Origin: Bilabrum cf. latius
Lineage: Eukaryota
Direction of reading: 5' to 3'
NCBI GenBank assembly: GCA_965178125.1
Contig: OZ237741.1
Location: 1 to 64,000, forward strand
DNA: 64,000 bases
A model generated the notes under the pieces. It worked only from the letters and a program-made list of their open reading frames with translations, was not told the DNA's origin and made no database searches. Shown here piece after piece: positions 2,586 to 30,172 of this stretch. The translations under genes were made by a program, and so were the position numbers. The stretch's first letter is position 1; each line of letters starts with the position of its first letter.

Positions 2586-5098
2586 TCTTCATCCGGCCAT
2601 ATCGGCGCCGCGCGACAAAAACGGATCCTAATAAAATTTTGCCCCATGTTGTGCCCCAGGACCGACCCAATGCAGTTTGAATCATCTTCATATCTACTCT
2701 GGTTGCCGAGATCTCAATTCCGTATTTTGGTCCACGAAACTCTTCATCCGGCCATATCGGCGCCGCGCGACAAAAACGGATCCTAATAAAATTTTGCCCC
2801 ATGTTGTGCCCCAGGACCGACCCAATGCAGTTTGAATCATCTTCATATCTACTCTGGTTGCCGAGATCTCAATTCCGTATTTTGGTCCACGAAACTCTTC
2901 ATCCGGCCATATCGGCGCCGCGCGACAAAAACGGATCCTAATAAAATTTTGCCCCATGTTGTGCCCCAGGACCGACCCAATGCAGTTTGAATCATCTTCA
3001 TATCTACTCTGGTTGCCGAGATCTCAATTCCGTATTTTGGTCCACGAAACTCTTCATCCGGCCATATCGGCGCCGCGCGACAAAAACGGATCCTAATAAA
3101 ATTTTGCCCCATGTTGTGCCCCAGGACCGACCCAATGCAGTTTGAATCATCTTCATATCTACTCTGGTTGCCGAGATCTCAATTCCGTATTTTGGTCCAC
3201 GAAACTCTTCATCCGGCCATATCGGCGCCGCGCGACAAAAACGGATCCTAATAAAATTTTGCCCCATGTTGTGCCCCAGGACCGACCCAATGCAGTTTGA
3301 ATCATCTTCATATCTACTCTGGTTGCCGAGATCTCAATTCCGTATTTTGGTCCACGAAACTCTTCATCCGGCCATATCGGCGCCGCGCGACAAAAACGGA
3401 TCCTAATAAAATTTTGCCCCATGTTGTGCCCCAGGACCGACCCAATGCAGTTTGAATCATCTTCATATCTACTCTGGTTGCCGAGATCTCAATTCCGTAT
3501 TTTGGTCCACGAAACTCTTCATCCGGCCATATCGGCGCCGCGCGACAAAAACGGATCCTAATAAAATTTTGCCCCATGTTGTGCCCCAGGACCGACCCAA
3601 TGCAGTTTGAATCATCTTCATATCTACTCTGGTTGCCGAGATCTCAATTCCGTATTTTGGTCCACGAAACTCTTCATCCGGCCATATCGGCGCCGCGCGA
3701 CAAAAACGGATCCTAATAAAATTTTGCCCCATGTTGTGCCCCAGGACCGACCCAATGCAGTTTGAATCATCTTCATATCTACTCTGGTTGCCGAGATCTC
3801 AATTCCGTATTTTGGTCCACGAAACTCTTCATCCGGCCATATCGGCGCCGCGCGACAAAAACGGATCCTAATAAAATTTTGCCCCATGTTGTGCCCCAGG
3901 ACCGACCCAATGCAGTTTGAATCATCTTCATATCTACTCTGGTTGCCGAGATCTCAATTCCGTATTTTGGTCCACGAAACTCTTCATCCGGCCATATCGG
4001 CGCCGCGCGACAAAAACGGATCCTAATAAAATTTTGCCCCATGTTGTGCCCCAGGACCGACCCAATGCAGTTTGAATCATCTTCATATCTACTCTGGTTG
4101 CCGAGATCTCAATTCCGTATTTTGGTCCACGAAACTCTTCATCCGGCCATATCGGCGCCGCGCGACAAAAACGGATCCTAATAAAATTTTGCCCCATGTT
4201 GTGCCCCAGGACCGACCCAATGCAGTTTGAATCATCTTCATATCTACTCTGGTTGCCGAGATCTCAATTCCGTATTTTGGTCCACGAAACTCTTCATCCG
4301 GCCATATCGGCGCCGCGCGACAAAAACGGATCCTAATAAAATTTTGCCCCATGTTGTGCCCCAGGACCGACCCAATGCAGTTTGAATCATCTTCATATCT
4401 ACTCTGGTTGCCGAGATCTCAATTCCGTATTTTGGTCCACGAAACTCTTCATCCGGCCATATCGGCGCCGCGCGACAAAAACGGATCCTAATAAAATTTT
4501 GCCCCATGTTGTGCCCCAGGACCGACCCAATGCAGTTTGAATCATCTTCATATCTACTCTGGTTGCCGAGATCTCAATTCCGTATTTTGGTCCACGAAAC
4601 TCTTCATCCGGCCATATCGGCGCCGCGCGACAAAAACGGATCCTAATAAAATTTTGCCCCATGTTGTGCCCCAGGACCGACCCAATGCAGTTTGAATCAT
4701 CTTCATATCTACTCTGGTTGCCGAGATCTCAATTCCGTATTTTGGTCCACGAAACTCTTCATCCGGCCATATCGGCGCCGCGCGACAAAAACGGATCCTA
4801 ATAAAATTTTGCCCCATGTTGTGCCCCAGGACCGACCCAATGCAGTTTGAATCATCTTCATATCTACTCTGGTTGCCGAGATCTCAATTCCGTATTTTGG
4901 TCCACGAAACTCTTCATCCGGCCATATCGGCGCCGCGCGACAAAAACGGATCCTAATAAAATTTTGCCCCATGTTGTGCCCCAGGACCGACCCAATGCAG
5001 TTTGAATCATCTTCATATCTACTCTGGTTGCCGAGATCTCAATTCCGTATTTTGGTCCACGAAACTCTTCATCCGGCCATATCGGCGCCGCGCGACAA
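2586..5098. repeat. 155-bp satellite: 16 apparently identical units plus a partial unit
   Basis: Unit start TCTTCATCCGG recurs at 2586, 2741 ... 5066; the ORF track repeats with a 155-bp period. Confidence 0.98.
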
Positions 5099-5813
5099 CC
5101 CTAACCCTAACCCTAACCCTACCCTAACCCTAACCCTAACCCTAACCCTAACCCTAACCCTAACCCTAACCCTAACCCTAACCCTAACCCTAACCCTAAC
5201 CCTAACCCTAACCCTAACCCTAACCCTAACCCTAACCCTAACCCTAACCCTAACCCTAACCCTAACCCTAACCCTAACCCTAACCCTAACCCTAACCCTA
5301 ACCCTAACCCTAACCCTAACCCTAACCCTAACCCTAACCCTAACCCTAACCCTAACCCTAACCCTAACCCTAACCCTAACCCTAACCCTAACCCTAACCC
5401 TAACCCTAACCCTAACCCTAACCCTAACCCTAACCCTAACCCTAACCCTAACCCTAACCCTAACCCTAACCCTAACCCTAACCCTAACCCTAACCCTAAC
5501 CCTAACCCTAACCCTAACCCTAACCCTAACCCTAACCCTAACCCTAACCCTAACCCTAACCCTAACCCTAACCCTAACCCTAACCCTAACCCTAACCCTA
5601 ACCCTAACCCTAACCCTAACCCTAACCCTAACCCTAACCCTAACCCTAACCCTAACCCTAACCCTAACCCTAACCCTAACCCTAACCCTAACCCTAACCC
5701 TAACCCTAACCCTAACCCTAACCCTAACCCTAACCCTAACCCTAACCCTAACCCTAACCCTAACCCTAACCCTAACCCTAACCCTAACCCTAACCCTACC
5801 CTAACCCCCCTAA
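5097..5813. repeat. Telomeric repeat tract (CCCTAA)n, ~0.7 kb, left-chromosome-end orientation
   Basis: Nearly perfect CCCTAA array with a variant unit near each end. Confidence 0.99.
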
Positions 5814-6355
5814 AGACTGTAAGGGTGGCCATGAGACAGAGCGCTGGATGGGGGTGTGGCCGGACCTGGATGGAGACTGCAAGGGTGGTCATGAGACAGA
5901 GCGCTGGATGGGGGTGTGGCCGGACCTGGATGGAGACTGCAAGGGTGGTCATGAGACAGAGCGCTGGATGGGGGTGTGGCCGGACCTGGATGGAGACTGC
6001 AAGGGTGGTCATGAGACAGAGCGCTGGATGGGGGTGTGGCCGGACCTGGATGGAGACTGCAAGGGTGGTCATGAGACAGAGCGCTGGATGGGGGTGTGGC
6101 CGGACCTGGATGGAGACTGCAAGGGTGGTCATGAGACAGAGCGCTGGATGGGGGTGTGGCCGGACCTGGATGGAGACTGCAAGGGTGGTCATGAGACAGA
6201 GCGCCGGATGGGGGTGTGGCCGGACCTGGATGGAGACTGCAAAGGTGGTCATGAGACAGAGCGCCGGATGGGGGTGTGGCCGGACCTGGATGGAGACTAC
6301 AAAGGTAATGGATGGAGACTGCAAGGGTGATGGATGGAGACTGCAAGGGTGATGG
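5814..6355. repeat. Subtelomeric 60-bp tandem repeat (~8 units) decaying into 22-bp subunits
   Basis: Consecutive 60-nt lines are identical or near-identical; the array abuts the telomeric tract. Confidence 0.96.
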
Positions 6356-12197: not shown

Positions 12198-12566
12198 GTT
12201 TGAGGATTACATTGCTGAAGACTAACGCGCGTGTAGGCGCGCGTGCATGTCACAGGACCGGGCGCCGCGTGTCTCAGGTCGTGTGCGATCTAGGATCGCA
12301 CATTCAGATTCGGCCGCGCAAGGGTTGGTATGGCCTTGAAGCCCGTGTTTGTATGTTGCCGTAGTAAATATATTTGATGTTTTGTCGGTCATTCCATGTG
12401 TGATCTGGCTAACGACTATTGAGCCTTGGTGAAGCTCGGCAAGCAGACAGAAAAACAAAGAATAGTGCCCACGAACGTCCCCGTGCAGCAGCAGCAGCAG
12501 GCCACGCAATGAACCCGCCAAATATAATCCAAGATCACAAAGTCAGGCGTGTGAGGGCCAACCTCA

Positions 12567-13720
12567 TCACCCAATGTAGCTTGCCTCGAGGTCATCGAAC
12601 GATGGCGCTCCGCCAGGCGGTGCCTGCTTGGCCCCGTGGCCGCCAGACCCTCGCGCCTGCGACGCGCGCGACTGGGAGGCAAAGTAGGTCATCGAGTCGA
12701 TTCCCACGGGACGAGGGGGGAACTGCCCGCCCTGGGCAGCCCCGGCCGGAACAGATGAGCTGCGGGCACCCGCCCGCCCAGGCGCCGGTGACGCGCCACC
12801 GCCGGCCTGGCCTGAGGCGGCGGGAGCCACCGGGGCGAACGCGTCGGGGGCCGCGAACGGATCCACGTCCGCTTCGTCTGCTCCTCCGTTGGACGCCGCG
12901 CCTCCCACGTCGCTCTGCGCCCCCGCGCCGCCGCCCTGCGACTGGGAGGGCGTCGACGCGCCGCCGTCGGTGCCGTCCAGCATGCCGCGCAGGTGCGCCT
13001 CCATCTCGGCGTCGTCGTCGTCCTCGCCGCCCTCGTCCCCATCAGCTGCACCTCCCAGCAAATCATCGTCGGCATCCTCTACGACAGCCTGCGGTGCGGG
13101 CTCTGCCACGGCCGCCGACCTGCTCGGCCGCGCGCCGCTGGAGGGTCGCGGGGCCGCGGCCGATTGGGAGGCAGGGGCCCCGGAGGGGCCCCTGCCAGGA
13201 GATGCTGGCGGTGCGTCAAACGACAGTCTTGATACTTTAGCGACAATCGCCTTCCTATACACGGGCACGGGCGCTTGCATGTCATCTACGTCAACCCAGA
13301 CTGCGATGCAAGGATAAAGTTGCGCCAACGGCTTGATGCTTGGGAGGTCCTGCTAGACATGGATATTCGACTCCATTCTTCAGTAAGTTCTCGTGTATTG
13401 AGACAATGGTGCACCAAGAATAACGCTCCCCTTCGCCACAGACCTTGGCCCGTGCGAGGCCCTTCCACGCGTGACCTAAGGTCCTAATATCGAAGCGAAG
13501 GCTACCTGGCGCATTGCTCACCATATGTCTGGCCGTACTGGGCTTTGAAGCGGAAAAAATACGTCCCGGGAAGGGGGAAGTGCTTCACAACATGATGTAA
13601 TCGCAGGGCGCCCGAAGCTGGAACCGCAAACACATTCGGGTGCGCCTCTGAATCTCCATCCTCCGGAACAAAGTATCGGATGTACGTTCTAGCAGATTTA
13701 GAGCGCTGTGCCTGCGACAT
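12567..13720 (-). CDS. DIX-like domain protein with low-complexity tail; intron 13301-13521
   Basis: IRYFVPEDGD..HPNVF..LRLHHVVKHFPLPGTYFFRFK..VWVDV..PVPVY..IVAKV; the GTGAGC..GCAG intron keeps frame; ends TGA. Confidence 0.75.
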
Positions 13721-13825
13721 GTAATGCCCTCGGGGGTGGTAATGATGCCTGAACTGGCCTTCCGTGCGGCTGCCAATAAAAAATAAAAATGACGATTGCC
13801 AAAAAAGAAAAAAGAAAAGGAAGCT

Positions 13826-13862
13826 CACCCCCTGCGGGTCTCGATCCCGCGGCCTGACGATT
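13826..13862 (-). pseudogene. 3' half (positions ~37-73) of a disrupted tRNA-Lys(CTT) gene, with Pol III terminator
   Basis: Minus strand reads AATCGTCAGGCCGCGGGATCGAGACCCGCAGGGGGTG followed by T-runs (13801-13818). It matches the intact tRNA at 14531-14603 except in the anticodon stem. Confidence 0.9.
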
Positions 13863-14023
13863 GTGGACGAGGAACACATGGCTCTCTCCACTGTCTACAG
13901 CTAAGCTGACGATTGTGTAGAAAGACCCTCCCACTGTCACGAGCAGGCTCGGTTGCACGACGCAAGCGGCTCACATGCCCGCCCAGCCAGCACCCTCAAG
14001 AGTGGCTGTGGCCCACTGGCAGT

Positions 14024-14400
14024 GGCATAGAGGCATAGAGGCATAGAGGCATAGAGGCATAGAGGCATAGAGGCATAGAGGCATAGAGGCATAGAGGCAT
14101 AGAGGCATAGAGGCATAGAGGCATAGAGGCATAGAGGCATAGAGGCATAGAGGCATAGAGGCATAGAGGCATAGAGGCATAGAGGCATAGAGGCATAGAG
14201 GCATAGAGGCATAGAGGCATAGAGGCATAGAGGCATAGAGGCATAGAGGCATAGAGGCATAGAGGCATAGTGGCATAGTGGCAGTGGCAGTGGCGGTCGG
14301 TGGCAGTGGCAGTGGCAGTGGCAGTGGGTGGCAGTGGCAGTCACAAACCAGATGGCAGTGGCAGTGGCAGTGGCAGTGGGTGGCAGTGGCAGTGGCAGTC
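14024..14400. repeat. (GGCATAGA)n, ~31 copies, followed by degenerate (GTGGCA)n
   Basis: Directly visible. Confidence 0.97.
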
Positions 14401-14530
14401 ACAAACCAGAAACAAACGCGGCTGCACGCCTCATCTACCAGCTGCATGTTTACGTGGTTGGCCGCGATCGAGCCGATCTGCCGGCCCTTTTTCGGTAAAA
14501 TGCAACAGCGAAATCGGAGCAAAAACGATT

Positions 14531-14603
14531 CACCCCCTGCGGGTCTCGATCCCGCGGCCTAGCGATTAAGAGTCGCTCGCTCTACCGACTGAGCTAAGAG
14601 GGC
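14531..14603 (-). tRNA. tRNA-Lys(CTT), intact, 73 nt
   Basis: GCCCTCT TA GCTC AGTCGGTA GAGC G AGCGA CT CTT AA TCGCT AGGCC GCGGG ATCGAGA CCCGC AGGGGGT G folds as a cloverleaf; TTTTT lies 5 nt downstream. The T-loop has A54. Confidence 0.92.
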
Positions 14604-15519
14604 TTGTGCTTCACCGGATAATTCATAATATCTAGTAATAAAGTCTGTTCAAGTTTGTATGAATCATGAGCTTTCTCGAAGGAGTAGTATCATTTCTGTC
14701 TGTATGCGGACCAAGCACTTGATTAATCTCGACTTTTACCTGATTACACGATGAAATACTCTTCATTATGTTATGTTGCTTGCTGGTGGATTGCATGTAA
14801 TTCGGCGACAGCTGGTGCTTGAAAGTGAGAAGTAGCTGGTTCGATCAGCAACATGCGCGATACGTCGCAGTGCCATCATAGTAGACGGAGTCAGCTTAGG
14901 ATTTGGGTTAGGGTTAATCGGTCTCTAGTGCGCTATATTGCCTTCTATGACCACTACATTGCTGTGGCCTGTGCAGGAAGTGGCAGTTTCAAGACGATCC
15001 ATCGCGACGCGATCTTGTGTGCCCAGAGTCCCGGACGGCGCGCAGTTTGATTCATCTGCATGTGTCAATGCTACGGTAGCTTGGATACGGGCTCAGATGA
15101 AGCTGCCACCATCGGAGCGAAGCGTGCACATTGATGTGTATTGGCCTATGCTCCATACGTCAACGTCACCGATTACCCTGCTGCCGCACAGTCCCGGGCA
15201 GCAGCGGACGGGACAGTCTCACGTTAGCTGCTGTTTACTTTGAGGCTTTACTACTGCACATTCTGAGATTTCCAACGTGTCAACCTCGTTCCACGGTCAA
15301 GGTTGCTTCCGTTCTCCTGTGAGCCAGACACCAGCTTTATTGGCAATTAGAAAGGAATTCTTACAGTGGAAGATGGCCACTCTATACTTGCTGACACCGC
15401 TTGCACATCACAGAGCTCGGTTCAGTGCGGTAGTGCGTATCGATTGACAATTGGGCAGATTGCTGCAGGGCGACTGTACATGTAGTCCAGTGTTGCAGTG
15501 TTGCAGTGTTGCAGTGCCT

Positions 15520-15808
15520 GTGGTCCGGGAGGGGCAGTGCTGCAGGGGGCAAGTGGTCCGGGAGGGGCAGTGCTGCAGGGGGCAAGTGGTCCGGGAGGGG
15601 CAGTGCTGCAGGGGGCAAGTGGTCCGGGAGGGGCAGTGCTGCAGGGGGCAAGTGGTCCGGGAGGGGCAGTGCTGCAGGGGGCAAGTGGTCCGGGAGGGGC
15701 AGTGCTGCAGGGGGCAAGTGGTCCGGGAGGGGCAGTGCTGCAGGGGGCAAGTGGTCCGGGAGGGGCAGTGCTGCAGGGGGCAAGTGGTCCGGGAGGGGCA
15801 GTGCTGTA
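15520..15808. repeat. 33-bp minisatellite (~9 units), preceded by one solitary copy of the 103-bp repeat (15424-15520)
   Basis: GTGGTCCGGGAGGGGCAGTGCTGCAGGGGGCAA tandem array. Confidence 0.95.
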
Positions 15809-16348
15809 GTGCATGTTGATCGATGTACTTGGACATCAAGATCAAAGCGACGGGGAGCAGAGGTGAGCCGGAAGACGAGGCGGGCGCAGGAGGACAGGAG
15901 ATGGAGAGGAACAAGAGGGGGACACCGGCACAGGTGACGATAGTGCGGTGTCAATGGTTTAGAACACAACTGGACGGAGAGGGTTCCAGGTGCCAGGTAC
16001 ATGGGAGACGCGAGTTGCAGCGGGCTGCATGGCCAGCCGCGCACAGAAGGCCAACAGGTGGGTGGATGGACGGTGCGCATGGCAGGTCGGCCAGGACCTG
16101 TTCGTGCAAGCTGAGAAGATAGGGTCAAGGTGGCGATGCAGGGAGCAGCGCGCACGTACCCTAGGGCGGGGAGCGGGGACGGAAAGCCATGCAGCAACGA
16201 GGCCAGTCGACTTGCATTCGGAAAGTGGTGTGTACATTCGTCGTATCCAAGCTTAACCACATTCGGGTGGGCTGCTGAGCAACCAGTCGGTCGGAGTCCG
16301 CGGGACCTGGGACAGGAATTTTTTATTTGAATTGGGGCCAGTGTGGTT

Positions 16349-18065
16349 GTGGTCCAGGGCGGGAGTGCGGTAGTGCATATCGATTGACGATTGGGCAGAT
16401 TGCTGCAGGGCGACTGTACATGTAGTCCAGTGTTGCAGTGTTGCAGTGCCTGTGGTCCAGGGCGGGAGTGAGGTAGTGCATATCGATTGACGATTGGGCA
16501 GATTGCTGCAGGGCGACTGTACATGTAGTCCAGTGTTGCAGTGTTGCAGTGTTGCAGCGTTGCAGTGTTGCAGTGCCTGTGGTCCAGGGCGGGAGTGAGG
16601 TAGTGCATATCGATTGACGATTGGGCAGATTGCTGCAGGGCGACTGTACATGTAGTCCAGTGTTGCAGTGTTGCAGTGTTGCAGTGCCTGTGGTCCAGGG
16701 CGGGAGTGAGGTAGTGCATATCGATTGACGATTGGGCAGATTGCTGCAGGGCGACTGTACACGTAGTCCAGTGTTGCAGTGTTGCAGTGCCTGTGGTCCA
16801 GGGCGGGAGTGAGGTAGTGCATATCGATTGACGATTGGGCAGATTGCTGCAGGGCGACTGTACATGTAGTCCAGTGTTGCAGTGTTGCAGTGCCTGTGGT
16901 CCAGGGCGGGAGTGAGGTAGTGCATATCGATTGACGATTGGGCAGATTGCTGCAGGGCGACTGTACATGTAGTCCAGTGTTGCAGTGTTGCAGTGTTGCA
17001 GTGCCTGTGGTCCAGGGCGGGAGTGAGGTAGTGCATATCGATTGACGATTGGGCAGATTGCTGCAGGGCGACTGTACATGTAGTCCAGTGTTGCAGTGTT
17101 GCAGTGCCTGTGGTCCAGGGCGGGAGTGAGGTAGTGCATATCGATTGACGATTGGGCAGATTGCTGCAGGGCGACTGTACATGTAGTCCAGTGTTGCAGT
17201 GTTGCAGTGTTGCAGTGCCTGTGGTCCAGGGCGGGAGTGAGGTAGTGCATATCGATTGACGATTGGGCAGATTGCTGCAGGGCGACTGTACACGTAGTCC
17301 AGTGTTGCAGTGTTGCAGTGCCTGTGGTCCAGGGCGGGAGTGAGGTAGTGCATATCGATTGACGATTGGGCAGATTGCTGCAGGGCGACTGTACATGTAG
17401 TCCAGTGTTGCAGTGTTGCAGTGTTGCAGTGCCTGTGGTCCAGGGCGGGAGTGAGGTAGTGCATATCGATTGACGATTGGGCAGATTGCTGCAGGGCGAC
17501 TGTACACGTAGTCCAGTGTTGCAGTGTTGCAGTGCCTGTGGTCCAGGGCGGGAGTGAGGTAGTGCATATCGATTGACGATTGGGCAGATTGCTGCAGGGC
17601 GACTGTACATGAAGTCCAGTGTTGCAGTGTTGCAGTGCCTGTGGTCCAGGGCGGGAGTGAGGTAGTGCATATCGATTGACGATTGGGCAGATTGCTGCAG
17701 GGCGACTGTACATGTAGTCCAGTGTTGCAGTGTTGCAGTGTTGCAGCGTTGCAGTGCCTGTGGTCCAGGGCGGGAGTGAGGTAGTGCATATCGATTGACG
17801 ATTGGGCAGATTGCTGCAGGGCGACTGTACATGTAGTCCAGTGTTGCAGTGTTGCAGTGCCTGTGGTCCAGGGCGGGAGTGAGGTAGTGCATATCGATTG
17901 ACGATTGGGCAGATTGCTGCAGGGCGACTGTACACGTAGTCCAGTGTTGCAGTGTTGCAGTGCCTGTGGTCCAGGGCGGGAGTGAGGTATTGCATATCGA
18001 TTGACGATTGGGCAGATTGCTGCAGGGCGACTGTACATGTAGTCCAGTGTTGCAGTGTTGCAGTG
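16349..18065. repeat. 103-127 bp tandem repeat (~16 units) with a variable number of internal GTGTTGCA 8-mers
   Basis: Constant ~87-bp body plus 2-5 copies of the 8-mer per unit. Confidence 0.96.
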
Positions 18066-18120
18066 GAGAGCGGTAGCAATTTATATTGTATGGGTACACA
18101 GGCAATCAGGTTGTCTAAGA

Positions 18121-21100
18121 TTAATGCCACAACTCGCGGGGTGGCGAGGCTGCGGTGGTCGCTGGGCCAGCAGCAGTTCTGTGGACATTTCTTGCGCAAG
18201 TACTTTGGCCCTCAGGCGTCCGGCGCTGCTGCAACCCGAGAAATGCGGTCATTCGCATCTGACCAGGACGTCCAGCAGCAATCTACGTCTTTGACTTGCG
18301 GCTTGTCTTTGTTTGGTTGGGGGGCGGGACTGCAGGTGTATCGTGCGTCCCCATGTTGCTTCTGCTTCGTGGAACTGTATCGGCCGATCCGCCAACTCGC
18401 CTACGCTTTGCTGGGGGCTACTCCCTGTCACGACGTGGAGGTTGGAAGCCTTCTCTTGACTGTCCAGTCCCCTTAGTAGGAGCTTGCATGTTTGATCGAT
18501 GTTTGTCGGATTCTTGGCGATGCATGGACGACGCCGCTGGTCCGCCACCACCGCTAGTCTGAAGCATGTCGCCACCCCTGGCCATTTGCGCGGCCATCTG
18601 CGCTGGAGTAGCCCGAGCCATGCCGAGCGCGGTGCCACCCTGGGCTTGCTGCTGGGGGGCAGTGCGTCCGGTCACCCCACCCAGTATCTGCAGGGCACTG
18701 CGACGTTTGCGGCTCTTCCCGGCTGAGCTCGCGGAACCTTTGCTCGACAGGTTGCTGCTCGCAGACGCAGGTCCGCTGGCGTACTGCAGTTGGCGGGCGT
18801 GGGGCAAGCAGGCACCCCTTTGCTGGTCGTCGGACTCTTGGCGATGCATGGACGACGCCGCTGGTCCGCCACCACCGCTAGTCTGAAGCATGTCGCCACC
18901 CCTGGCCATTTGCGCGGCCATCTGCGCTGGAGTAGCCCGAGCCATGCCGAGCGCGGTGCCGCCCTGGGCTTGCTGCTGGGGGGCAGTGCGTCCGGTCACC
19001 CCACCCAGTATCTGCAGGGCACTGCGACGTTTGCGGCTCTTCCCGGCTGAGCTCGCGGAACCGTCAGGGGGCTCATTACCGGAATCTCGGGCGAGCAGGC
19101 AGCATAAACGGACTGCCCTTTACCGGCTCTTCATTACTCCTGGCATCATTAAAACATGCTATAATTAATCGTAGCTGAATATTAATGAGCTTGATCTCAT
19201 TTAATGGGTGTTAATATTCGTTTGACTTTGTAAATTTACGGTAAGGCGAGGCTAACTTTTGGTGCTGCTTCGTAGCCAAGCGTCGGTCACCTTCAACGTG
19301 TCAATTGAGCTCATTTCGATAATTCAAGCAGCTTTATGGGTAAATATACATAGATTCTGGCTTGTCGTGGTATCCGTCAACCCATTGATATTCCATAAGT
19401 ACCGTATTTCCTGAGCAGGCAAGGCTGGACAAGAGTTGCAAAACCTCGCTATAGCAAGGCACATGTCCTGGGCGAATTGAACCTTATGGTATCAATTTTC
19501 ATTAAGTACTTATTAGTCTTGCGGGGTATGAGCATGTGCAGCATACTTTTTCTGGCACTGGCACCCTGGTAAGCTATCGACCAGTGGTTCGCTTGTTGCG
19601 TCAGCCTCCGGGCTTATTTGAAGCATAACGGCTGAAGCAAAGCCTGCAACACATATAATACTCATATTGGCGTAAGCATGCAGTGAGTGCGGTCAGGAGA
19701 TGTCAAGCAAGGTTGCCACGGACTTGGCGGAGGGTTGAGCAGTTGTGGAAGGGAATTGGAGCATGGCAAGCCCCACGACCCACAGCCCTGTGTATGCCCC
19801 GGTAGCGTAACCACAATCTCTTTGACATATTTACTGCCATTTGAGCATGACTGTCTTTGCGGCTTTGGTGTATGAGGCTGCACGGCAGGGGCTCGGCAAC
19901 TGCGGGCTCAGGCAGCTACTGCTCATGACACCACCACTGTTCAGACCAAAAGGCAAGGCTATGGATCGCGTGGCTAGCAGAGGAACGCTGATGACATTTT
20001 ATGGTGTTAAGTGTTGAGAGCACCGGTCCAAATCTCAGTATAGCATAGGAGGCCCAACCACACGGAAGAGCTGTGACACGTCGCGGGGGGCACCTTGGGG
20101 GGCAGGTCCATGCATCAGATATAGTACGGTTCTGATAGTCCCGCCTTACCAGATGGTTGAAGCCATAGTATTGCTGAATTAGAGGGGTTGTCGTCTGTTG
20201 ATCGTCCCATGAAATGGTCGTGCAACCCTGAGAAGGAGGCGGACGTGCCAAGCCTGCTAGCAACTGCGCGGGGGGCTGCAAGCTCTCAATTAGCAATAAA
20301 CAGGCTAAAGTAGCTACTTGCAGTCTTAAATAGTAACAGATGATGTCTGTGGGGCCTGCTAGGTGTTGTAAGTTAATATGGGCCGTTGTGGCAGCTGGGA
20401 CGCAGCTGTATTCAGCCTGGGGTCGAGGCAAACTAGGGCCCTCATGTAGAGTCGGAGGAAACTAGAACATGCACTGTGCAACCGCAGCAGTTCAACAAGG
20501 TCCTTTGCATTAGATTACTGCTACGGAAATTCATCTTAGGTCTCATGTAAAGGATGTATGCACACTATCTTTGGACAGTGCAAGTTGCTTGCCAGTCACG
20601 CTGCATCAGACGAATAACTGGATCCACATGCCCATAAAGCTCATCGTTAATACTTCATATATAAATATCACAAAATTGAGAGTATTAACCAGCAGGTATG
20701 CCGAACACGCATTGCAGGCAGAAAAAACTACAACCAGACCATGCAGCCCTCTGGCAGAAACCGGGAGGCACCAGGCTCGTGGTTGCGAGCAGCAAGCACG
20801 TGTGGATCTACAATGCTCTTTTGTACGGATAACATACTGTAGCCGCCTGATGAGGCCAATGGGTGCACAGGAAATAGGATGCAGGTGCCTCGAAAATTGC
20901 TCACAGCGGCCCGCCCACGCTCTTCACCAAACCCAGGCATCAATAACTGCAATTCGTGCAATTTCAGACCGCCATTAGTATAATTATAAATAGATTTAGT
21001 GTGAGAGAGAAGATCATGCCGATTCATCGAGGAATGAAAGCATGAACGCTATCTGAAATATATCCTCCTATGCGACCTGCCGGGGCGAATTTCGTGAATC

Positions 21101-24100
21101 CCGTGCTCGGTGGCCGACAGCTTGAACTGCACCCCCTGTATCTTCGTCAATAAGTACGTTGCAGACTTGAAATTTGCACAAAATACTATTAATGAAGTAA
21201 ATATCATATTACATTAGTTATTATTCTCTTTAATGGTTTTCAATGGTTGGAACACGGCCCCTGAAAATAGGCCCAATCGGCGATTTTTATTCCGGTAATG
21301 AGCCCCCTGACGGAACCTTTGCTCGACAGGTTGCTGCTCGCAGACGCAGGTCCGCTGGCGTACTGCAGTTGGCGGGCGTGGGGCAAGCAGGCACCCCTTT
21401 GCTGGTCGTCGGACTCTTGGCGATGCATGGACGACGCCGCTGGTCCGCCACCACCGCTAGTCTGAAGCATGTCGCCACCCCTGGCCATTTGCGCGGCCAT
21501 CTGCGCTGGAGTAGCCCGAGCCATGCCGAGCGCGGTGCCGCCCTGGGCTTGCTGCTGGGGGGCAGTGCGTCTGGTCATCATCTGCATGATGTCCGGATGC
21601 CTGCGGCTCTTCCCGGCTGAGCTCGCGGAACCTTTGCTCGACAGGTTGCTGCTCGCAGTCGCAGGTCCGCTGGCGCTCTGCAGAGTCTCCTTGAGTGAGT
21701 CAGGTAGGTGAAGCTCGGGATTCAAACTTGTCGCATACGCTGAAATTTTCAGCGCCCGCCCAGCCGGGAGTGCAAAAACAGCTCTGTACTCGTCTAGTTT
21801 AGCAGCTGCGTTTGAAGCCGCAACATGTGTAGCTGAAGCCTCCGGCATGCACAAAGAAAGCCGCATGAGCACGCATGTCCCGCCTGCGAAACCGGTCCCC
21901 GCTACGAGTGCATGCAGTGCAAGGGCGTTAGCTGCCCCCTACGCCCTGAGGTTCACTCCATCGTGAATATCACGCGCATTATTGGGTCCAGCCAGGCTAA
22001 CCTTGCCATGCTTGGTAAGGCGGCCGATGCTCGCGATCTGCGGCTTCCCAGTTTGCATGGGCGACGCTGATGCCGAAGATCGTGCCGCCACTGCCGTCGC
22101 CGCCGAAGATGATGAGTCGCGCTCGCTGGAAGGTAGTGATGTAACGCGCAGGTCAATAACCTGCACCTATACGGTCTATTGCAGCGCCGCGCGGGGTACA
22201 GCGGGTCGTTCGAGGCAGAGCTGGTCCGGGATGTCCTCGACGTTGGTTGACACGCTGACAGAAGACGAGGAGGCAGCGGTCTGTGGCTGCGATGCATCTG
22301 AGCTTGCAGCCGATGAGGCAGCGGTCTGTGGCTGCGATGCATCGGAGCTTGCAGCCGATGGGGCAACGGTCTGTGGCTGCGATGCATCGGAGCTTGCAGC
22401 CGATGAGGCAACGGTCTGTGGCTGCGATGCATCGGAGCTTGCAGCCGATGACGCAGCATTGGCCGCATCAGGCTGCATTGGTGCCTTAACAATACCTGCG
22501 ATCTGCTTGATCGTCATGCGGATGATATTGCCTGCTCGATCCTTACTCTTTGCGTCGACCTCTTGGAAGACTGCGTTGGCCAGGACAAGCCTGGAGTTGA
22601 AGAACTTGTCAGTGGTAACCGTCTGAGCGCTTCTAGGATGCAATACCTCCTACGTGTGTCCGTGGAGCTGCCGTAGCGCATCGGTAGCTCGATCGCGGGG
22701 GTAGTCCTTACTTGCAACCTCCGCAACAGTCTTTGGCAGCGTGGCACAAGCCCAAGTACCTGCACAAATGTGTTGGAACTGGGATGTCATGTCAAAGCCT
22801 GCGATCACCTTGCGAACAGTGTTCTGGGGGGACTTCTTAATGCTGTCCCTCAGCCAACTGACAGTGTTGTTGCCCGACTTGCCATTGGTGATAATGGCGT
22901 GGAGGTTGCGCACTGCCTCGTAGGCCGGCTGAGTCCAGGCATCCCCAGCCATGCATTTCGAGAGGATTGCAGCTTCCTCGACGCTGAGCACATCTTCATC
23001 AGCCAAACTGTGATTTAGACTGGCCTGGAAGTGCAATGCGATGCGCTGTGATACCGAAGGTGGCTTGGCCCCCGTCCCTCTCGCCCGTATCAGCTTGCTG
23101 ACCAGAGTCAAGAGAATAGCGACGCGCTCGACGATCTCATGCGCATCTGCGCCCCTGCTACTCGAGGCTGTGGCGGCACCAGGGTTAGAAGTGGCAAGCG
23201 CTGGCCGGACTGCCGTGCTTCGCTTCTTCAGCTGCATCGCAGCCTGCAGGTCTTCCCCGATTTTTCGTTGCAGGGCGGGTCGCGATGTCAGCATCTGAAC
23301 CTACGCCTCCCCAGCCTACGATTGGTGAAGCAAGCAGTGGGACAGGGCGGCTCGACCGGTACTATGGGAGTAGTGCCCATCTGTGCTGGCGCGCACCATA
23401 CTGAGCACCATGTGTCTCCCGCCTTCCTCCCACGCTGTTGGTTCTGGGTATCCGGGGCTCCAGCTCTTGCCCCCCATACCAACAAGAGGTCCGCTCGAGA
23501 GGAAAGCTTGGCTAATGGCGTCTCTGGCTGACTCTTGGTATAGGCATTGCATGGCATCCGTGTGATCGGAGCGGGCAATGATGACGCCGAGAGCCTCATT
23601 GCCAATGCGCGTCGCGAGCAGGGCACGGCCAATCCGGCTCGATGAGTCCACGCTGCACAAGGACGTACCCCGGGCTCCGACCCTGAAGGAGTTCATTGGA
23701 AGGGCATCACTCGTCTCATGATCATCAGTGTCGTCGTTTGGCGTTGCCTCGCCGATACTGTTCACCGCTTGTGTGAAGCCTTTGATTGGGTCGACCATAC
23801 CCTCAGGGTCCCAGAAGATTCGAGCACCAGCGAAGCACATACCAGCTTTGTCTTGACACGCACCAATCGCTCGAATAAGAGCAGAGCCAGCCTGAACGCA
23901 TCGGTTCCACGATGAATCAAGTGCTACGTGTGGTTCAACGGCATTTCTGCTTTCTACCGTTTGCTTGCCTCGCGCAGCGTTTGACGACCGGACTCCGCTC
24001 AGCATTGCATGTGCATCGCACAAGCAGCTCTCAAGCAGCTCACGGAACAGATGATGGCACGGACTGGCATGAGTTCCAGTGCGCCCAGCTCGGTTGACAA

Positions 24101-26279
24101 GTCTGAGCAGCATTGGATGCTGCGTGCTCACACGCACTTCCTTGGGAGTGTCGTTGCAGGCCTGCCCGACAACGGCTACGAGCTGGTGCTTCTGACTTCC
24201 AGAAAACGCTTCACGTGCTTTTTCAATGGAGTCTAATGTCTCCACGGAGACAATGCTGGACCTTGCACCCCCGGCTGTCGCAGACTTAGCCGAGCCGTCA
24301 GACTTGCTGGCGTGGCTCATTCCCAGTGGGTTGAACGCTGCAGTAGCAGAGGAACCTGGTTGCCTGGGCCGCGAGACAATCGTTGCACTGGTACTCGGTG
24401 CCGACTCCTTGCCAATTACTCGGGAAAGAGTTGTGCTGGAATTGCTAACGTGATCTACTAGCGACTTGAACAGCTCACGCATTGCACCAGCTGTGGCGAC
24501 ATCTTGGCGCATCCCACGACCCATAAAGTCATCGTGCGCTGCTACACGGCACGGAGGCAAGCCCTCTGCCGTTGAAACCTGAACGTTACGAACCGCGTGC
24601 TCGCAAGGTGGAGCGCCGCTAGTGCTTGATGGTGCAGTAGAGGATGAAGCCGCTGCTAGCCGACCGCCTCGACCGCTGGTCTCGGCCACTGAGCACTGGA
24701 CTACTTGAGCACACAAACGTCTAAGCTCGTGCCTCCGAGGCTGAATTGTCTTACAGACGCTGTTCATGTTTGCCATCATGCTTGCCTTTCCGGTCTTCTC
24801 GACGTGCGCGGCCGGACCTCTCTGCAGCACCATTGCCGGCCTGCCTGTTTCGGAAGGGAGCTTTCCGTCTTGGCCTGCTCGTGATGCAGATCCTGCAGAT
24901 TCAATCCCTGAGATTTGGCGTGGTTGACCCATAGCTGTCCAAGCCGCGGACTCTGGAGCATCGGACGGAGGGTTGATGGTCAGGCATCGGCCTGCTGCGG
25001 CCTCTGCCCTCTGGAGCGCACCGTCTGAGGTCAGGCGCTCACCGTTGGCGTACCAGTCCCACCCTCGGGCTGTAGGATGGTGTGCAGAGAGTGCTGCCTG
25101 TTGCTGTTGGCCCGTGGCTAGTAGCATGTTGTGAATCAAGGCACCAGCAGCAGAAGCTGGTTCGGCCTCGGTGCTGCTGCGCACTGCCAAAGCCCTACTC
25201 GCCCTGTGCACGTTTGAGCTCTGCGTGCTCATACCCACTTCTGTTGTTTGAGTATTTGGCCTCCAACATAGACCCCTTACTCGAAGTTGTCCTGTCGATG
25301 CACTCATCTTCATGCTTCGGGCAACCGCGGTAGCGGCGAGATCCTCGCTGGATGGGACTGGCTAGCCGCTTGCGGCTGCTGCTTGGCCGACTTGGCTCGT
25401 TGAACTGGCGTATTGCCTGATCTACTGCAGGGATTGTACCAAGCCGTCGTTTAAGGGTAGCACCATTGCTGCCTGCAAGTAAACACCAGACCCCCTTCCG
25501 TCGATTGCTGTGTAGTCCTCGAGCTTGATTTGGAACGGATGCTGATGGGCCGCAGTGCTGCCCTTGGAAGCGACTACGGCAAAAGCCTATTCGCGAATCC
25601 GTGCCATTGCATAGACAGCTGCAGCTCCACGGGCTGCATGTACATGCAGCGCCCACATTGCCTGTCCCATTTCTCTGCTGACACGGCCGAGGCGTCGTAG
25701 GCTCGAGAGGGCCCTTGCACAGCCAGGTGTGCCAAAGTGTAGCTCTACGTGCACGGCTCTCACGCCATATGTGGAGTTGACTGGTCCCATTCGAATATGG
25801 ACGCTGCTGCCAAATTCTGAGCAGACCTTCAGTGGTGTCGTTCGGCTCTGTAGCGAAGCTGCCAGCTCGGCCGCTTGGACTGGGTCGATGTCGGCTGCAC
25901 GTGTTGAGGCAGCCTTGTCATCGCTGACCCCAGAGTCTACTTCTCCAGGCTGTTCAGCCAAGCTTGTGCCGAACGGGCTGTGCTGGCCGGTGGTCCTTTG
26001 ATCGTTTGTGAGCTAGCTGGAGCGCGCCATTCGACTTCCGGGCACCTGCTCGGAACTGCCCAGCAGTGACGCCGCGACAGAGATTGAGCCCTTGAGGGGA
26101 TGCTATGACTCTTTAATAGATGAAGACACCCTCGAAGCAGTCACAGGCTATATACTTGGGCTTGTGCGGGCATTCAACCCTCCCCTGATTGATGATGTGT
26201 GCGCAGCCTGTGTCGACCACGTCGAAGCGGACGACGAGAAAGTTGGCTACATCGCTCCCCCCTGTGAGGTCATAGGCAT
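18121..26279 (-). CDS. Giant intronless orphan gene (~1967 aa reconstructed with TAG=Gln), interrupted by a TIR element at 19061-21313; as it stands it terminates at TGA 21240 (~1679 aa)
   Basis: ORFs 25587-25961, 23316-25313, 22650-23294, 22176-22643, 21939-22166 and 21240-21872 are in one frame, broken only by TAG, and open back to ATG 26279. Removing 2255 bp restores the frame into ORF 18418-18999, which reads on to TAA 18121. Confidence 0.75.
19061..21313. mobile_element. 2.25-kb terminal-inverted-repeat element, apparently non-autonomous or decayed
   Basis: 25-bp perfect TIR CCGTCAGGGGGCTCATTACCGGAAT (19061-19085; reverse complement at 21289-21313). The empty site CGGAACCTTT is seen in sister repeat units. 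TSD is AA, or GGAACC if the TIR is 23 bp. Confidence 0.88.
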
Positions 26280-26311
26280 ACTGTAGAGGGATGTTCTTGT
26301 TATTTGTGGCA

Positions 26312-27289
26312 GGCCTGACGATTAAGAGTCGTCCGCTCTACCGACTGAGCTAAGAGGGCTTGTGGTCATCTATCCGTCACACCATATCCAAATGAAGCTT
26401 GCAGCGCTGATGCTGCCATGCACTGTCGATGTCTTCGCATCGATTCAGAAGGAGTAACGGCCAACGGTAGCGTATTTTGGGCTTTATTTGAAGCTGCTGG
26501 AATAGGAAAACGTCTGCTGCACTTCTCAACTTCAAGCCAGCACCTGCTCTTCAATCGGATCGCAGTAGTTCCGCTACGCCACCGAGACGGCCGCGGCGCC
26601 ACCAGATTCAACTTTCGCGAACCAAGTCCCGACAGCAGCTGACCGCCCTCGCGCGACTTCGGAAACAAGCGGCTAGATCGCTCGCATTCCTCCAGTGCAT
26701 TACGGCGGAATGCGCCGCCTGGCCCGACGAGTTGCTGTGCATGGTGTGTGACAGTGGCGCTCTCGGCTCGGCCGGGTAGCTGGGGCGACTTCGGGCTTGA
26801 CACGGTGCCGCGAGCAAGGGTTTGCGCCAGGCCAGACTCTTGTCTCGCTAGTTTCTGTGCCAGGAAGCGAGCAGGCTCCCGGCTCCGGCGGCGGCGAATT
26901 CGTGCTTCGGCAGCGCGTGGCTCCGTCGGTCGGCAGCGACGGGAGCGCGGTCGTCCCGCTGCCCAGGCGGGACTCGTCTGGCGCTCTCGGCTTCGACGAG
27001 ATCCGATTCAAGCTGCAGGATGACAGCGTCGGAGATCTGCTCGCGCGAGCCGCGGAGCGGCTCGGGGTGGAGGCTGGCAGTTGCGCGGTGCGGTTCGCCT
27101 CGGACGGGTCTCGCGTGGCCCGGAGCTTGCCGCTTCGCCGGCTGCTGCAGGTGGGCTGGAGGCTGGCAGCGGCAGACACGAGCACTGAGTTCACGCCCGC
27201 CCTCCACGTGATCGTCGGCGGGGAGGACGGCTTAGGCGACACATCAGCCCGGCGGCTGCCCGCCACGTTCACCACCGCCGAGCTGCCTC
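26312..27289 (+). pseudogene. 978-bp near-identical duplicate of 28051-29028: tRNA-Lys 5' half (26312-26359, minus strand), MCU upstream region and truncated MCU 5' end
   Basis: Offset 1739 bp; CGA>TGA nonsense change at 26749 (codon 14); homology stops at 27289. Confidence 0.92.
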
Positions 27290-27887
27290 AACCCGCGGGT
27301 GGTCAGACTAGTGGTTACACTCCCTGAAACTGCCCGCGGGACCACACTGTCTGGACAATGTTGATTTTAGTATTGTGCCCGGGTCATAGTTCTGCTAGCA
27401 TGATGTTAATAGCACGATACGGTAGGACGTAGGCGTTCGGGATTAGTTGTGGTAGCGTGAAGTCCGGAAACGCTCCATTGGCCAAGTGGGGCCTACAGCA
27501 TAATGAGTTTGTGGCTTCCCTTGTTCGCTCCGGACCCCCCGATGGTGATCCACGCCCCCATTACGCCCCTTTAAGCAGCCAATTGAATCAGTTTCGGAGG
27601 AATGTGTCACGTTTCGACAATTTAGATATCATTAGGGGATACTCAGCAGGGCCTCTGGCTGCACCGCTCCGGATGGCGTGCTGAACAGCTGCTGGGCTCG
27701 ATTCTGAAGCCACTAAGAGGAGTGGGTGGTAGAAAAGCCGCTGATAGCAATTTGAATGAGTAGTCGGTGCTAAGGGAGAGGATTTCAGGGCTGTCGGCGG
27801 ACACTTATTTGCAGTTTTAGCAGGAGATGTCCGCCTTCGTGCTCGGCAACTTCCGTGCAGTGGCACAGTTTCATACCGCTCTCACCA

Positions 27888-27937
27888 GCGGCCTGACGAT
27901 TAAGAGTCGTCCGCTCTACCGACTGAGCTAAGAGGGC
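27888..27937 (-). pseudogene. tRNA-Lys(CTT) 5' half, second copy (part of a 161-bp tandem duplication)
   Basis: GCCCTCTTAGCTCAGTCGGTAGAGCGGACGACTCTTAATCGTCAGGCCGC followed by non-tRNA sequence. Confidence 0.9.
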
Positions 27938-28048
27938 TTGTGGTCATCTATCCGTCACACCATATCCAAACGAAGCTTGCAGCGCTGATGTCCGCCTTCG
28001 TGCTCAGCGACTTCCGTGCAGTGGCACAGTTTCATACCGCTCTCACCA

Positions 28049-28098
28049 GCGGCCTGACGATTAAGAGTCGTCCGCTCTACCGACTGAGCTAAGAGGGC
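28049..28098 (-). pseudogene. tRNA-Lys(CTT) 5' half, third copy, contiguous with the intact MCU locus
   Basis: Same 50-nt sequence; it overlaps the 3' half at 13849-13862 by 14 bp. Confidence 0.9.
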
Positions 28099-28448
28099 TT
28101 GTGGTCATCTACCCGTTACACCATATCCAAATGAAGCTTGCAGCGCTGATGCTGCCATGCACTGTCGATGTCTTCGCATCGATTCAGAAGGAGTAACGGC
28201 CAACGGTAGCGTATTTTGGGCTTTATTTGAAGCTGCTGGAATAGGAAAACGTCTGCTGCACTTCTCAACTTCAAGCCAGCACCTGCTCTTCAATCGGATC
28301 GCAGTAGTTCCGCTACGCCACCGAGACGGCCGCGGCGCCACCAGATTCAACTTTCGCGAACCAAGTCCCGACAGCAGCTGACCGCCCTCGCGCGACTTCG
28401 GAAACAAGCGGCTAGATCGCTCGCATTCCTCCAGTGCATTACGGCGGA

Positions 28449-30023
28449 ATGCGCCGCCTGGCCCGACGAGTTGCTGTGCATGGTGTGCGACAGTGGCGCT
28501 CTCGGCTCGGCCGGGTAGCTGGGGCGACTTCGGGCTTGACACGGTGCCGCGAGCAAGGGTTTGCGCCAGGCCAGACTCTTGTCTCGCTAGTTTCTGTGCC
28601 AGGAAGCGAGCAGGCTCCCGGCTCCGGCGGCGGCGAATTCGTGCTTCGGCAGCGCGTGGCTCCGTCGGTCGGCAGCGACGGGAGCGCGGTCGTCCCGCTG
28701 CCCAGGCGGGACTCGTCTGGCGCTCTCGGCTTCGACGAGATCCGATTCAAGCTGCAGGATGACAGCGTCGGAGATCTGCTCGCGCGAGCCGCGGAGCGGC
28801 TCGGGGTGGAGGCTGGCAGTTGCGCGGTGCGGTTCGCCTCGGACGGGTCTCGCGTGGCCCGGAGCTTGCCGCTTCGCCGGCTGCTGCAGGTGGGCTGGAG
28901 GCTGGCAGCGGCAGACACGAGCACTGAGTTCACGCCCGCCCTCCACGTGATCGTCGGCGGGGAGGACGGCTTAGGCGACACATCAGCCCGGCGGCTGCCC
29001 GCCACGTTCACCACCGCCGAGCTGCCTCGGGGCTCGGGTGCAGCGCTGGGCTCGATTCGGGGATCAGTGGGAGGAGTGGACGGCCGCGGCGGGGAGGCGG
29101 TGGATGGCGAGCTGCATGCGTATTCGGTGCTAAGGGAGAGGCTTGCGGATCTGTCGGCGGACTCGCACTCGTTGCAGGTGTCTGCCTTCACGGACATGGT
29201 GCGGGCGGTGGCGAGGGAGCATTCGCTCGGGGGCATGCACGGGTCCAGCGCGTCAGCTGGTTCCGCCAGTGGGGTGGAGATCGGGGGGGAGTCCACGGAG
29301 GCCGATGTTCTGCTTGCACAGAGGTGGCTCGAGTGGCTGCAGGCAGAGGGGGTGGTCTACCACAGGCCTCTCTCGAGGGACGATGCCCTGCGGTCCACGC
29401 TCTTCCTCGTGCACGACGAGGCCGAGGTGGTGGTGGCGGGGGGAGGGGAGACGGAGGGAGGGAGGCTGGAGCAGCTGCTGACGGGTGCTCTGGACGTGGA
29501 GGGGCGGGCCCTGCAGGGTAAGATCGACGCCAAGCGAGACGAGCAGCGAGCGCTGGTGGATCAGCTGCAGGGCATGGATGAGCTGGCCGCCTCTCTGGAC
29601 CAGCAGGCCGCGAGAGACCTGTGGCTGCGGGCCCTGGGGACGGGGGGCTTCCTGGTGGCGCAGTATGCCTTCATCTTCCAGCAGGTGTACGTGACCTCCT
29701 GGGACGTGATGGAGCCCATCTGCTACTTTCTGTCCACGGCGTACTCGGTGCTCTTCTTCGGGTTCTTCCTGGCCACCAAGAGGGAGCCGCAGCATGGGAA
29801 CATCTGGCAGCACTTCTTGCAGAAGAGGAGAGCCAAGCTGCTGGAGGCAGCCACTAAAATGACCGTGGAGGCCTTCGAGGCGGAGCGCGAGTCCCTCCAG
29901 CGGCAGATCATGACCCTGCGGACGGAGGAGCAGCTGCTGGACGCGCGGGAGCAGGGGGCCATCCGGGCGGCCGAGGCTATTCGGGCGGCCGAAGACAGGC
30001 TCGGCACGCGAGATTAGAGCTAA
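28449..30023 (+). CDS. MCU: Mitochondrial calcium uniporter
   Basis: Coiled coil-TM-SWDVMEPICYF-TM-coiled coil; Arg-rich presequence. TAG 30015 is followed by AGC TAA, so the true stop is probably TAA 30021-30023. Confidence 0.9.
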
Positions 30024-30172
30024 GAAGCGTAGGTTTGGCGACAGTGAAGCATGTTTGAGCATATATGCACACGCACTTGCATCTGGCGGCCCAGTGGACC
30101 GGCCGAGCTGCTGCATTTCCGGTTTGCGGAGTATCGGTACCCCCGCCACGTCGCCACTCACTACTGTTCATA

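Follow-up and report, generated by a model that had tools for sequence, protein, structure and literature searches.

The 64-kb window analysed in this study, that is, the whole stretch of 64,000 nucleotides, contains one complete tRNA-Lys(CUU) gene and the pieces of a second, and the complete gene lies within a long insert that separates the pieces of the other. In the whole window, ARAGORN predicted a single tRNA, tRNA-Lys(ctt), at 14531–14603 on the minus strand with the anticodon ctt at position 34. The Rfam tRNA model RF00005 matched this gene with 63 bits against a gathering score of 29, and its minimum free energy (MFE) fold is a four-armed cloverleaf of −28.7 kcal/mol with the anticodon stem AGCGA/UCGCU (hereafter the AGCGA type). 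The 5' leader CACAA at 14604–14608 (−), read directly and confirmed by alignment, is common to the split copies described below. On the tRNA strand, a five-T run at 14521–14525 follows 6 nt past the 3' end, which we take to be a Pol III-type terminator. The A-box region appears to match the consensus, and the T-loop AUCGAGA, which the split copy also has, appears to deviate from the B-box consensus. In both Lys(CUU) genes, this T-loop places an A at the usual T54 of elongator tRNAs; A in place of T54 is a trait of eukaryotic initiator tRNAs. Both genes also have the acceptor-stem wobble pairs G1.U72 and U5.G68.

The second tRNA-Lys(CUU) gene, with GACGA in its anticodon stem (the GACGA type), is found in pieces. 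Its 3' part, corresponding to linear nt 37–73 of the tRNA, lies at 13826–13862 on the minus strand and is followed by T-runs on the tRNA strand; the 30-nt 3' part of the intact tRNA recurs exactly within it, at 13826–13855. The 5' part (nt 1–48, including a 12-bp core) together with its leader is present three times on the minus strand, at 26312–26364, 27890–27942 and 28051–28103, where the 5' part and leader of the intact tRNA recur with 2 mismatches at 26332–26364, 27910–27942 and 28071–28103. The 12-mer GGCCTGACGATT starts at 13851, 26312, 27890 and 28051; it terminates the 3' piece (core at 13851–13862) and opens each 5' piece (the first at 26312–26323), forming a 12-bp direct repeat. This core represents linear nt 37–48 of the tRNA, namely the last two bases of the anticodon loop, the entire 3' strand of the anticodon stem and the variable loop. 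By exact-word location, the intact gene instead has GGCCTAGCGATT at 14556–14567 (+), a variant with two central mismatches against the duplicated core. Both junctions of the insert carry half a gene only, and the target tRNA gene is regenerated at neither. The 30-nt 3' part had no exact match (0) among metagenome or viral contigs.

The three 5' halves were also reported by Rfam (27877–27937, 28038–28098 and 26256–26359, all minus strand) with 30.6–33.3 bits, just over the tRNA threshold; the adjoining foreign sequence offers a partial acceptor strand by chance. Annotation pipelines may therefore report such split halves as tRNA genes. Two other origins of the arrangement were set aside: a giant tRNA intron or a permuted tRNA by the 12.4-kb span with its T-runs and by the normal order of the halves, and a retroelement primer-binding site by a 3' part that lacks the CCA complement and retains its genomic trailer.

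The window is eukaryotic, as seen from a mitochondrial calcium uniporter (MCU) gene, a P-type ATPase, WW and Nse4 domains, the T-run terminators and a GT..AG stretch. The MCU gene, at 28449–30017 (+), belongs to the right host flank of the insert and was identified by Pfam PF04678 (E 6.4e-20) with a GC3 of 0.82; a homology search with its ORF found nothing. The best named relatives of the P-type ATPase are from stramenopiles, with 43–44% identity, and metagenome proteins reach up to 73%. This Na/K-type ATPase occupies two adjacent ORFs, 45069–47147 and 47223–49016 (−), which are 75 bp apart; this suggests either a frameshift or a short intron.

Separating the 3' piece from the first 5' piece, the insert (13863–26311) is 12,449 bp long, with a GC content of 0.56 versus 0.63 to its right, and tandem arrays with units of 8, 33, 103 and 45 bp fill much of it. 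Concerning its coding capacity, the Pfam scan at curated cut-offs covered 25 of the 35 stop-to-stop ORFs of at least 90 aa, in addition to 13971–14447; the other 10 ORFs lie in the arrays at 16.2–19.2 kb or outside the insert. In this set, the curated cut-off was not reached by any family; recombinase, integrase, transposase, reverse transcriptase (RT) and nuclease domains were all absent, and the three sub-threshold matches (YezG-like, P5CR_dimer and DUF5585) are unrelated to mobility. The GC3 values of the insert ORFs range from 0.49 to 0.65, versus 0.82–0.93 for the MCU, ATPase and Nse4 genes, and codon periodicity is lacking from ~9 kb to 28.4 kb. A 214-aa insert ORF had 0 relatives among 1.84 billion representatives, and a 665-aa insert ORF gave no usable Atlas match. 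The two ends of the insert have neither inverted nor direct similarity to each other (best local scores 14–18), and the insert has neither terminal inverted repeats (TIR) nor long terminal repeats (LTR). Additionally, an Rfam search of 12500–29000 with E up to 1 detected no RNA gene beyond the tRNA and the three halves. The insert is thus without coding capacity in these analyses and without any visible means of moving itself.

Part of the insert next to the tRNA appears to be transcribed. When 14400–15420 was compared with the contigs of runs X1, X5, X6 and X7, contigs of X5 and X6 matched parts of 14709–15420 without differences. In the RNA-like sets X5 and X6, the AGCGA tRNA itself is covered by no contig, and X7 gave no match at all; as small RNAs do not show up in contigs, this speaks neither for nor against expression of the tRNA. 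A 152-nt GT..AG stretch at 14825–14976 (+) is skipped in the X5 contig, with support from a loose end in X6, and is probably an intron of the transcript. These data suggest that 14709–15420 belongs to a spliced transcript of the plus strand, without a convincing reading frame. The skipped stretch contains a two-unit telomere-like sequence, GGGTTAGGGTTA, at 14905–14916. Two ideas considered earlier were dropped on this evidence. A trypanosomatid telomere-associated element is at odds with the GT..AG joint and the two-ORF ATPase, both of which point to introns; a strain lacking the island, which had been inferred from word shares of 0.39 and 0.28, is at odds with the X5 and X6 matches to 14709–15420.

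The junctions provide the main evidence that the tRNA gene was split in a specific manner. The 5' halves abut two unrelated neighbours at the identical base, one ending in ...TGTGGCA at 26311 and the other ending in ...CTCACCAGC at 27889 and again at 28050. Since two unrelated sequences are joined at the same base, the site was hit specifically. The first 5' half, whose left neighbour is the ...TGTGGCA sequence, opens a 978-bp duplicate at 26312–27289 (+) that is 99.7% identical to 28051–29028; this copy begins right at the core and takes in the upstream flank as well as the first part of the MCU reading frame. It is followed by ~600 bp of unrelated sequence at 27290–27889, which ends in ...CTCACCAGC at the core and forms the second junction type; neither ARAGORN nor Rfam found a tRNA in this remaining part of the second joined sequence. 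The second 5' half lies within a 161-bp tandem duplication (27826–28151), and the third is continuous with the full MCU gene flank. The second junction, with the MCU-side flank, is also present in a contig of X5, a run labelled as a different organism. This right-side pattern could be produced by a circle, consisting of core, 5' half, flank and element end, that re-entered at a core; alternatively, it could result from two successive insertions with a restored gene between them.

A further feature of the left junction is the motif TGACGATTG, which consists of the right part of the core plus G, the first base of the insert. In the window, it is found 19 times on the plus strand and 0 times on the other strand. 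Besides the left junction, 17 further copies are in the insert and 1 is just outside it, all in the orientation of the core. Sixteen copies are accounted for by the 103-bp tandem array at 16348–18065 (+), with the motif in each unit, and the copy outside the insert, at 13790–13798 (+), is 28 nt beyond the 3' end of the split gene and 65 bp left of the junction. The longer 12-mer CTGACGATTGTG spans the left junction at 13854–13865 and has a second copy 52 bp inside the insert, at 13906–13917 (+). For the corresponding 8-mer, ~1 occurrence was expected in the window and 22 were found, 16 of them belonging to the one tandem array and so not independent. A chance origin of the two extra TGACGATTG copies within 125 bp of the junction is unlikely.

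The preliminary description of this locus stated that the intact tRNA is identical to the split one, including the leader CACAA, except for a swap of two anticodon-stem pairs, and this was confirmed by our alignment. Joined by their coordinates, the halves give 73 nt, of which only linear nt 27, 28, 42 and 43 are not the same as in the intact gene (4/73). The pairs 27–43 and 28–42 are G-C and A-U in the split gene and A-U and G-C in the intact gene, so that the exchange of GACGA/TCGTC for AGCGA/TCGCT preserves pairing, as had been described; the joined split copy adopts the cloverleaf of the intact gene as well, with −28.6 kcal/mol against −28.7 kcal/mol. The A-box and B-box regions of the two genes are identical, and all differences are in paired positions and compensated. 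This compensatory change does show selection for a paired stem. The split gene itself is real, although its 5' halves number three rather than the one of that description. The same description placed the change exactly at the integration core; the mismatches do fall within the 12-bp core, but the core spans the whole 3' strand of the anticodon stem, so that any difference in this stem must coincide with it. Under simple nulls, the chance that two changed pairs both fall in the anticodon stem is ~0.05 (21 pairs) to ~0.10 (15 freely varying pairs). The two mismatches are located in the middle of the repeat, where an exchange dependent on homology would presumably be most sensitive to them.

Outside the genes, the leader CACAA is shared, similarity ends there on both sides, and only a T-run is otherwise common. 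With flanks sharing only CACAA and a T-run, the two genes are not recent segmental copies. Such unrelated flanks are as would be expected of old paralogues rather than of a recently captured and edited copy. Isodecoders are tRNA paralogues that have the same anticodon and a different body. The two genes resemble isodecoder genes in their anticodon, their identical A- and B-box regions, the compensated paired differences and the unrelated flanks; they differ from the usual case in that the AGCGA gene sits between the halves of its sister gene and the differences coincide with the duplicated insertion site. In our reading, the AGCGA gene is a real isodecoder, probably functional and apparently a single copy.

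Copy number could be gauged roughly from contigs of the source sample. Four runs of one sample contain 96% of the sampled words of 21001–31000. In X1, the AGCGA tRNA is flanked on either side by a single contig with a depth of 30–32, like the neighbouring sequence, and as far as contig depth, a rough guide, can tell, this gene and its surroundings are about single copy. A 53-nt contig of X1, containing the core, the GACGA 5' part and the leader, has a depth of 171; the GACGA 5' part is ~5–6 times deeper, roughly indicating ~5–6 copies, with the reservation that depth is not copy number, and 3 of these are in the window. Therefore, intact GACGA genes may exist and a rescue may be unnecessary. 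Among the contigs listed, which do not include one spanning 14560–14578, the AGCGA gene has no second context and no loose end at the core, and 'single copy' and 'never interrupted' are weak statements for this gene. The source contigs contain no repeat of the part of the insert that bears the tRNA, and therefore no family of such islands was seen there.

A separate 957-nt contig of X1, with a depth of 27.8, carries a full-length Lys(UUU)-like tRNA gene, which has a T-rich trailer of its own. This gene has 6 differences over 72 aligned positions compared with the Lys(CUU) gene, including G to A at 14570, which gives the anticodon TTT. Another difference is A to G at 14561, with no listed change at 14562, an absence on which the reading of the stem depends. 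As judged from this paralogue, the anticodon stem appears to be variable within the Lys family. The lysine isoacceptors are unusually alike in the source organism.

Several known systems were compared with this locus. Site-specific non-LTR retrotransposons such as R2 and SLACS/CZAR target multicopy RNA genes with nucleotide precision and produce target duplications of variable length. The nucleotide-precise use of a multicopy RNA gene is shared by the present insert; a retrotransposon of this type was nevertheless excluded, as there is no RT or endonuclease among the ORFs scanned and no A-rich or fixed 3' tail, and the junctions are without an A or T run. Such elements of multicopy RNA genes are mentioned in the compared part of PMC3706591, which together with PMC8869645 also describes the Dada DNA transposons. 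In the passages compared, Dada elements are inserted at fixed positions inside eukaryotic tRNA genes, including the anticodon arm, and are found in protists (Perkinsus); they lack terminal inverted repeats, have short sub-terminal repeats that are also present in the target and are proposed to aid recognition, produce 6–7 bp target duplications and encode a transposase (PMC3706591, PMC8869645). The insert described here likewise occupies a fixed base of a small multicopy RNA gene without TIR, and the TGACGATTG copies near its left junction are comparable to the sub-terminal repeats in those passages. In contrast to the Dada elements as presented there, the duplication is 12 bp rather than 6–7 bp, though the true duplication may be shorter and extended by matching element ends; no transposase domain was seen, for which Pfam may lack a Dada model; and the repeats are direct, not inverted. 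Further, the present insert contains a spare of the target gene, which the compared passages do not mention for Dada (PMC3706591, PMC8869645). Among the systems compared, Dada is the closest eukaryotic precedent.

The other comparison is with the islands in tRNA and tmRNA genes of prokaryotes, including archaea, which according to the part of PMC4383910 (Islander database) used here encode a tyrosine integrase and use sequence at the island edge to rebuild the gene that they split. Site-specific entry near the anticodon arm, a block of identity at both ends and a displaced gene fragment are features that the insert shares with these islands as they are described there (PMC4383910). It differs from that description in that no integrase was found, the gene is rebuilt at neither junction, a whole tRNA lies 668 bp inside and the host is eukaryotic (PMC4383910). 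A full-text literature search found no paper on an insert in a eukaryote that splits a tRNA gene and brings along a target-variant spare of it, an absence that is not proof. An insertion in the anticodon arm with a 12-bp duplication fits none of the families compared.

The explanation that we favour, at about even confidence, is that the AGCGA gene is an ordinary old isodecoder of a GC-rich eukaryote, located within a site-specific, non-autonomous insert, and that it probably escapes interruption through its mismatches. A cutting and joining activity encoded elsewhere would act site-specifically on the GACGA type, in which one exact base has been used by at least two sequences. The AGCGA gene would be an old paralogue kept by selection on tRNA function, whose two pairs may have been swapped via G.U intermediates. 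It would stay whole since two central bases of the 12-bp target differ in it, which would reflect survivorship rather than an adaptation of the insert. Some observations are uncomfortable for an ordinary isodecoder: the sole differences between the two genes fall in the duplicated target (chance ~0.05–0.10), and the intact variant is within the insert itself with no other AGCGA context in the source contigs, as rescue and immunity would predict. Additionally, the one-orientation TGACGATTG copies suggest that insert and target are specifically related and that the insert is not passive filler.

Passive filler would be expected if no mobile element were involved, namely if the tRNA-Lys site were fragile or prone to nuclease attack, its breaks being repaired with filler DNA and local duplications and the AGCGA tRNA arriving as a passenger from another locus. 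The surroundings are compatible with such a history. The region from ~9 to 28.4 kb shows no coding signal and lies 8 kb away from several satellites and an array of 118 AACCCT units; the right side is pieced together from the 978-bp flank duplicate, the 161-bp tandem copy and the 600-bp unrelated piece; the 9–12 nt of identity of CTGACGATTGTG at the junction and 52 bp inside could act as microhomology; and a spliced transcript and a Pol III gene are present in the insert, as in ordinary chromosomal DNA. However, random repair is not expected to leave a clean 12-bp duplication at each end or to form two independent junctions at the very same base, and the one-orientation motif is hard to credit to chance even with 16 of the 22 copies of the 8-mer (~1 expected) in one array. 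We consider break repair an unlikely account of the locus.

The preliminary description had proposed that an element with its own targeting destroys the gene and complements it with a resistant copy, that is, rescue plus self-immunity. In this proposal, a site-specific mobile element would destroy tRNA-Lys(CUU) genes while carrying a recoded, functional spare that is immune to its own machinery. Agreement with it is found in the site-specific split, with a site used at least twice, and in the compensatory isodecoder, an intact variant 668 bp from the left end inside the insert, whose only differences are the two central bases of the 12-bp repeat and their pairing partners. The single-copy-like depth, the lack of an interrupted form among the contigs listed and the TGACGATTG copies, 17 further times in the insert and once outside in one orientation, are also in its favour. 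Against it, integrase, transposase, RT and nuclease domains are absent from the ORFs scanned, the insert lacks coding periodicity, TIR and LTR, and its status as a self-propagating element with its own targeting is not supported. The tRNA-bearing part is not repeated in the source contigs; the second joined sequence, 27290–27889, is without a tRNA in what remains of it; and the ~5–6 depth-equivalents of the GACGA 5' part, with 3 in the window, leave room for intact GACGA genes. The claim that the tRNA was recoded for immunity, instead of being an ordinary old paralogue, is likewise not supported: the flanks of the intact gene are unrelated to those of the split gene beyond 5 nt, and variation in this stem is also seen in the Lys(UUU)-like paralogue. 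Taken as a hypothesis, rescue plus self-immunity is neither refuted nor shown; it survived weak tests without positive support, and we regard it as quite improbable.

In its strongest form, the locus would be a eukaryotic counterpart of the prokaryotic islands, in which a non-autonomous element with TGACGATTG-type recognition and a 12-bp core brings a recoded spare that is both functional and immune, while the gene is not rebuilt; this is very doubtful. The least probable explanation is an arms race on the host side, in which an agent erodes GACGA genes and AGCGA is a resistant host allele located in the insert incidentally: the compensatory swap keeps the composition and energy of the stem, the site has been hit repeatedly and the variant is uninterrupted in what could be seen, but with one variant gene, selection for resistance is indistinguishable from compensated drift, variation in the stem is found in the Lys(UUU)-like gene too, and the position of the variant between the two halves is left unexplained.

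Mobile DNA in multicopy RNA genes is thought to be tolerated since spare copies exist. If an insert does bring a target-proof spare, a selfish element would be paying its cost in a new manner, and this would be a natural example of the recoding of a gene to escape a site-specific enzyme. This adaptive account of the spare tRNA is unproven. If the AGCGA gene is ordinary isodecoder variation and intact GACGA genes exist elsewhere, its position is a coincidence of little consequence. In any case, it is unusual for a eukaryotic tRNA-Lys gene to be split site-specifically with a 12-bp repeat; even without the rescue reading, this is a rare eukaryotic example of nucleotide-precise, repeated insertion into a tRNA anticodon arm with a 12-bp duplication. 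The responsible enzyme, if found, could be of interest for targeted integration.

Some other features of the window deserve description. Just past the 3' end of the split tRNA, an ORF piece at 13505–13720 (−) tentatively resembles DIX domains in language-model features (score 0.94, 216/256 features); Pfam finds nothing in it, its GC3 is only 0.57, and it may be a decayed host exon. At 5097–5807, 118 units of AACCCT, which is complementary to the telomere repeat TTAGGG, form an internal array flanked by a 155-bp satellite (2586–5098, 16 copies, 99–100% alike) and a 60-bp repeat (5814–6306, 8 copies). This region looks like a chromosome end buried in the contig and could be an interstitial telomere, a fusion or a join made in assembly. 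Where the window bears genes, a 331-bp direct repeat with 98% identity occurs at 41366–41696 and 43847–44177, 2.5 kb apart, and ~90 GCAGGT units lie at 52310–52873 within the ORF carrying the WW domain.
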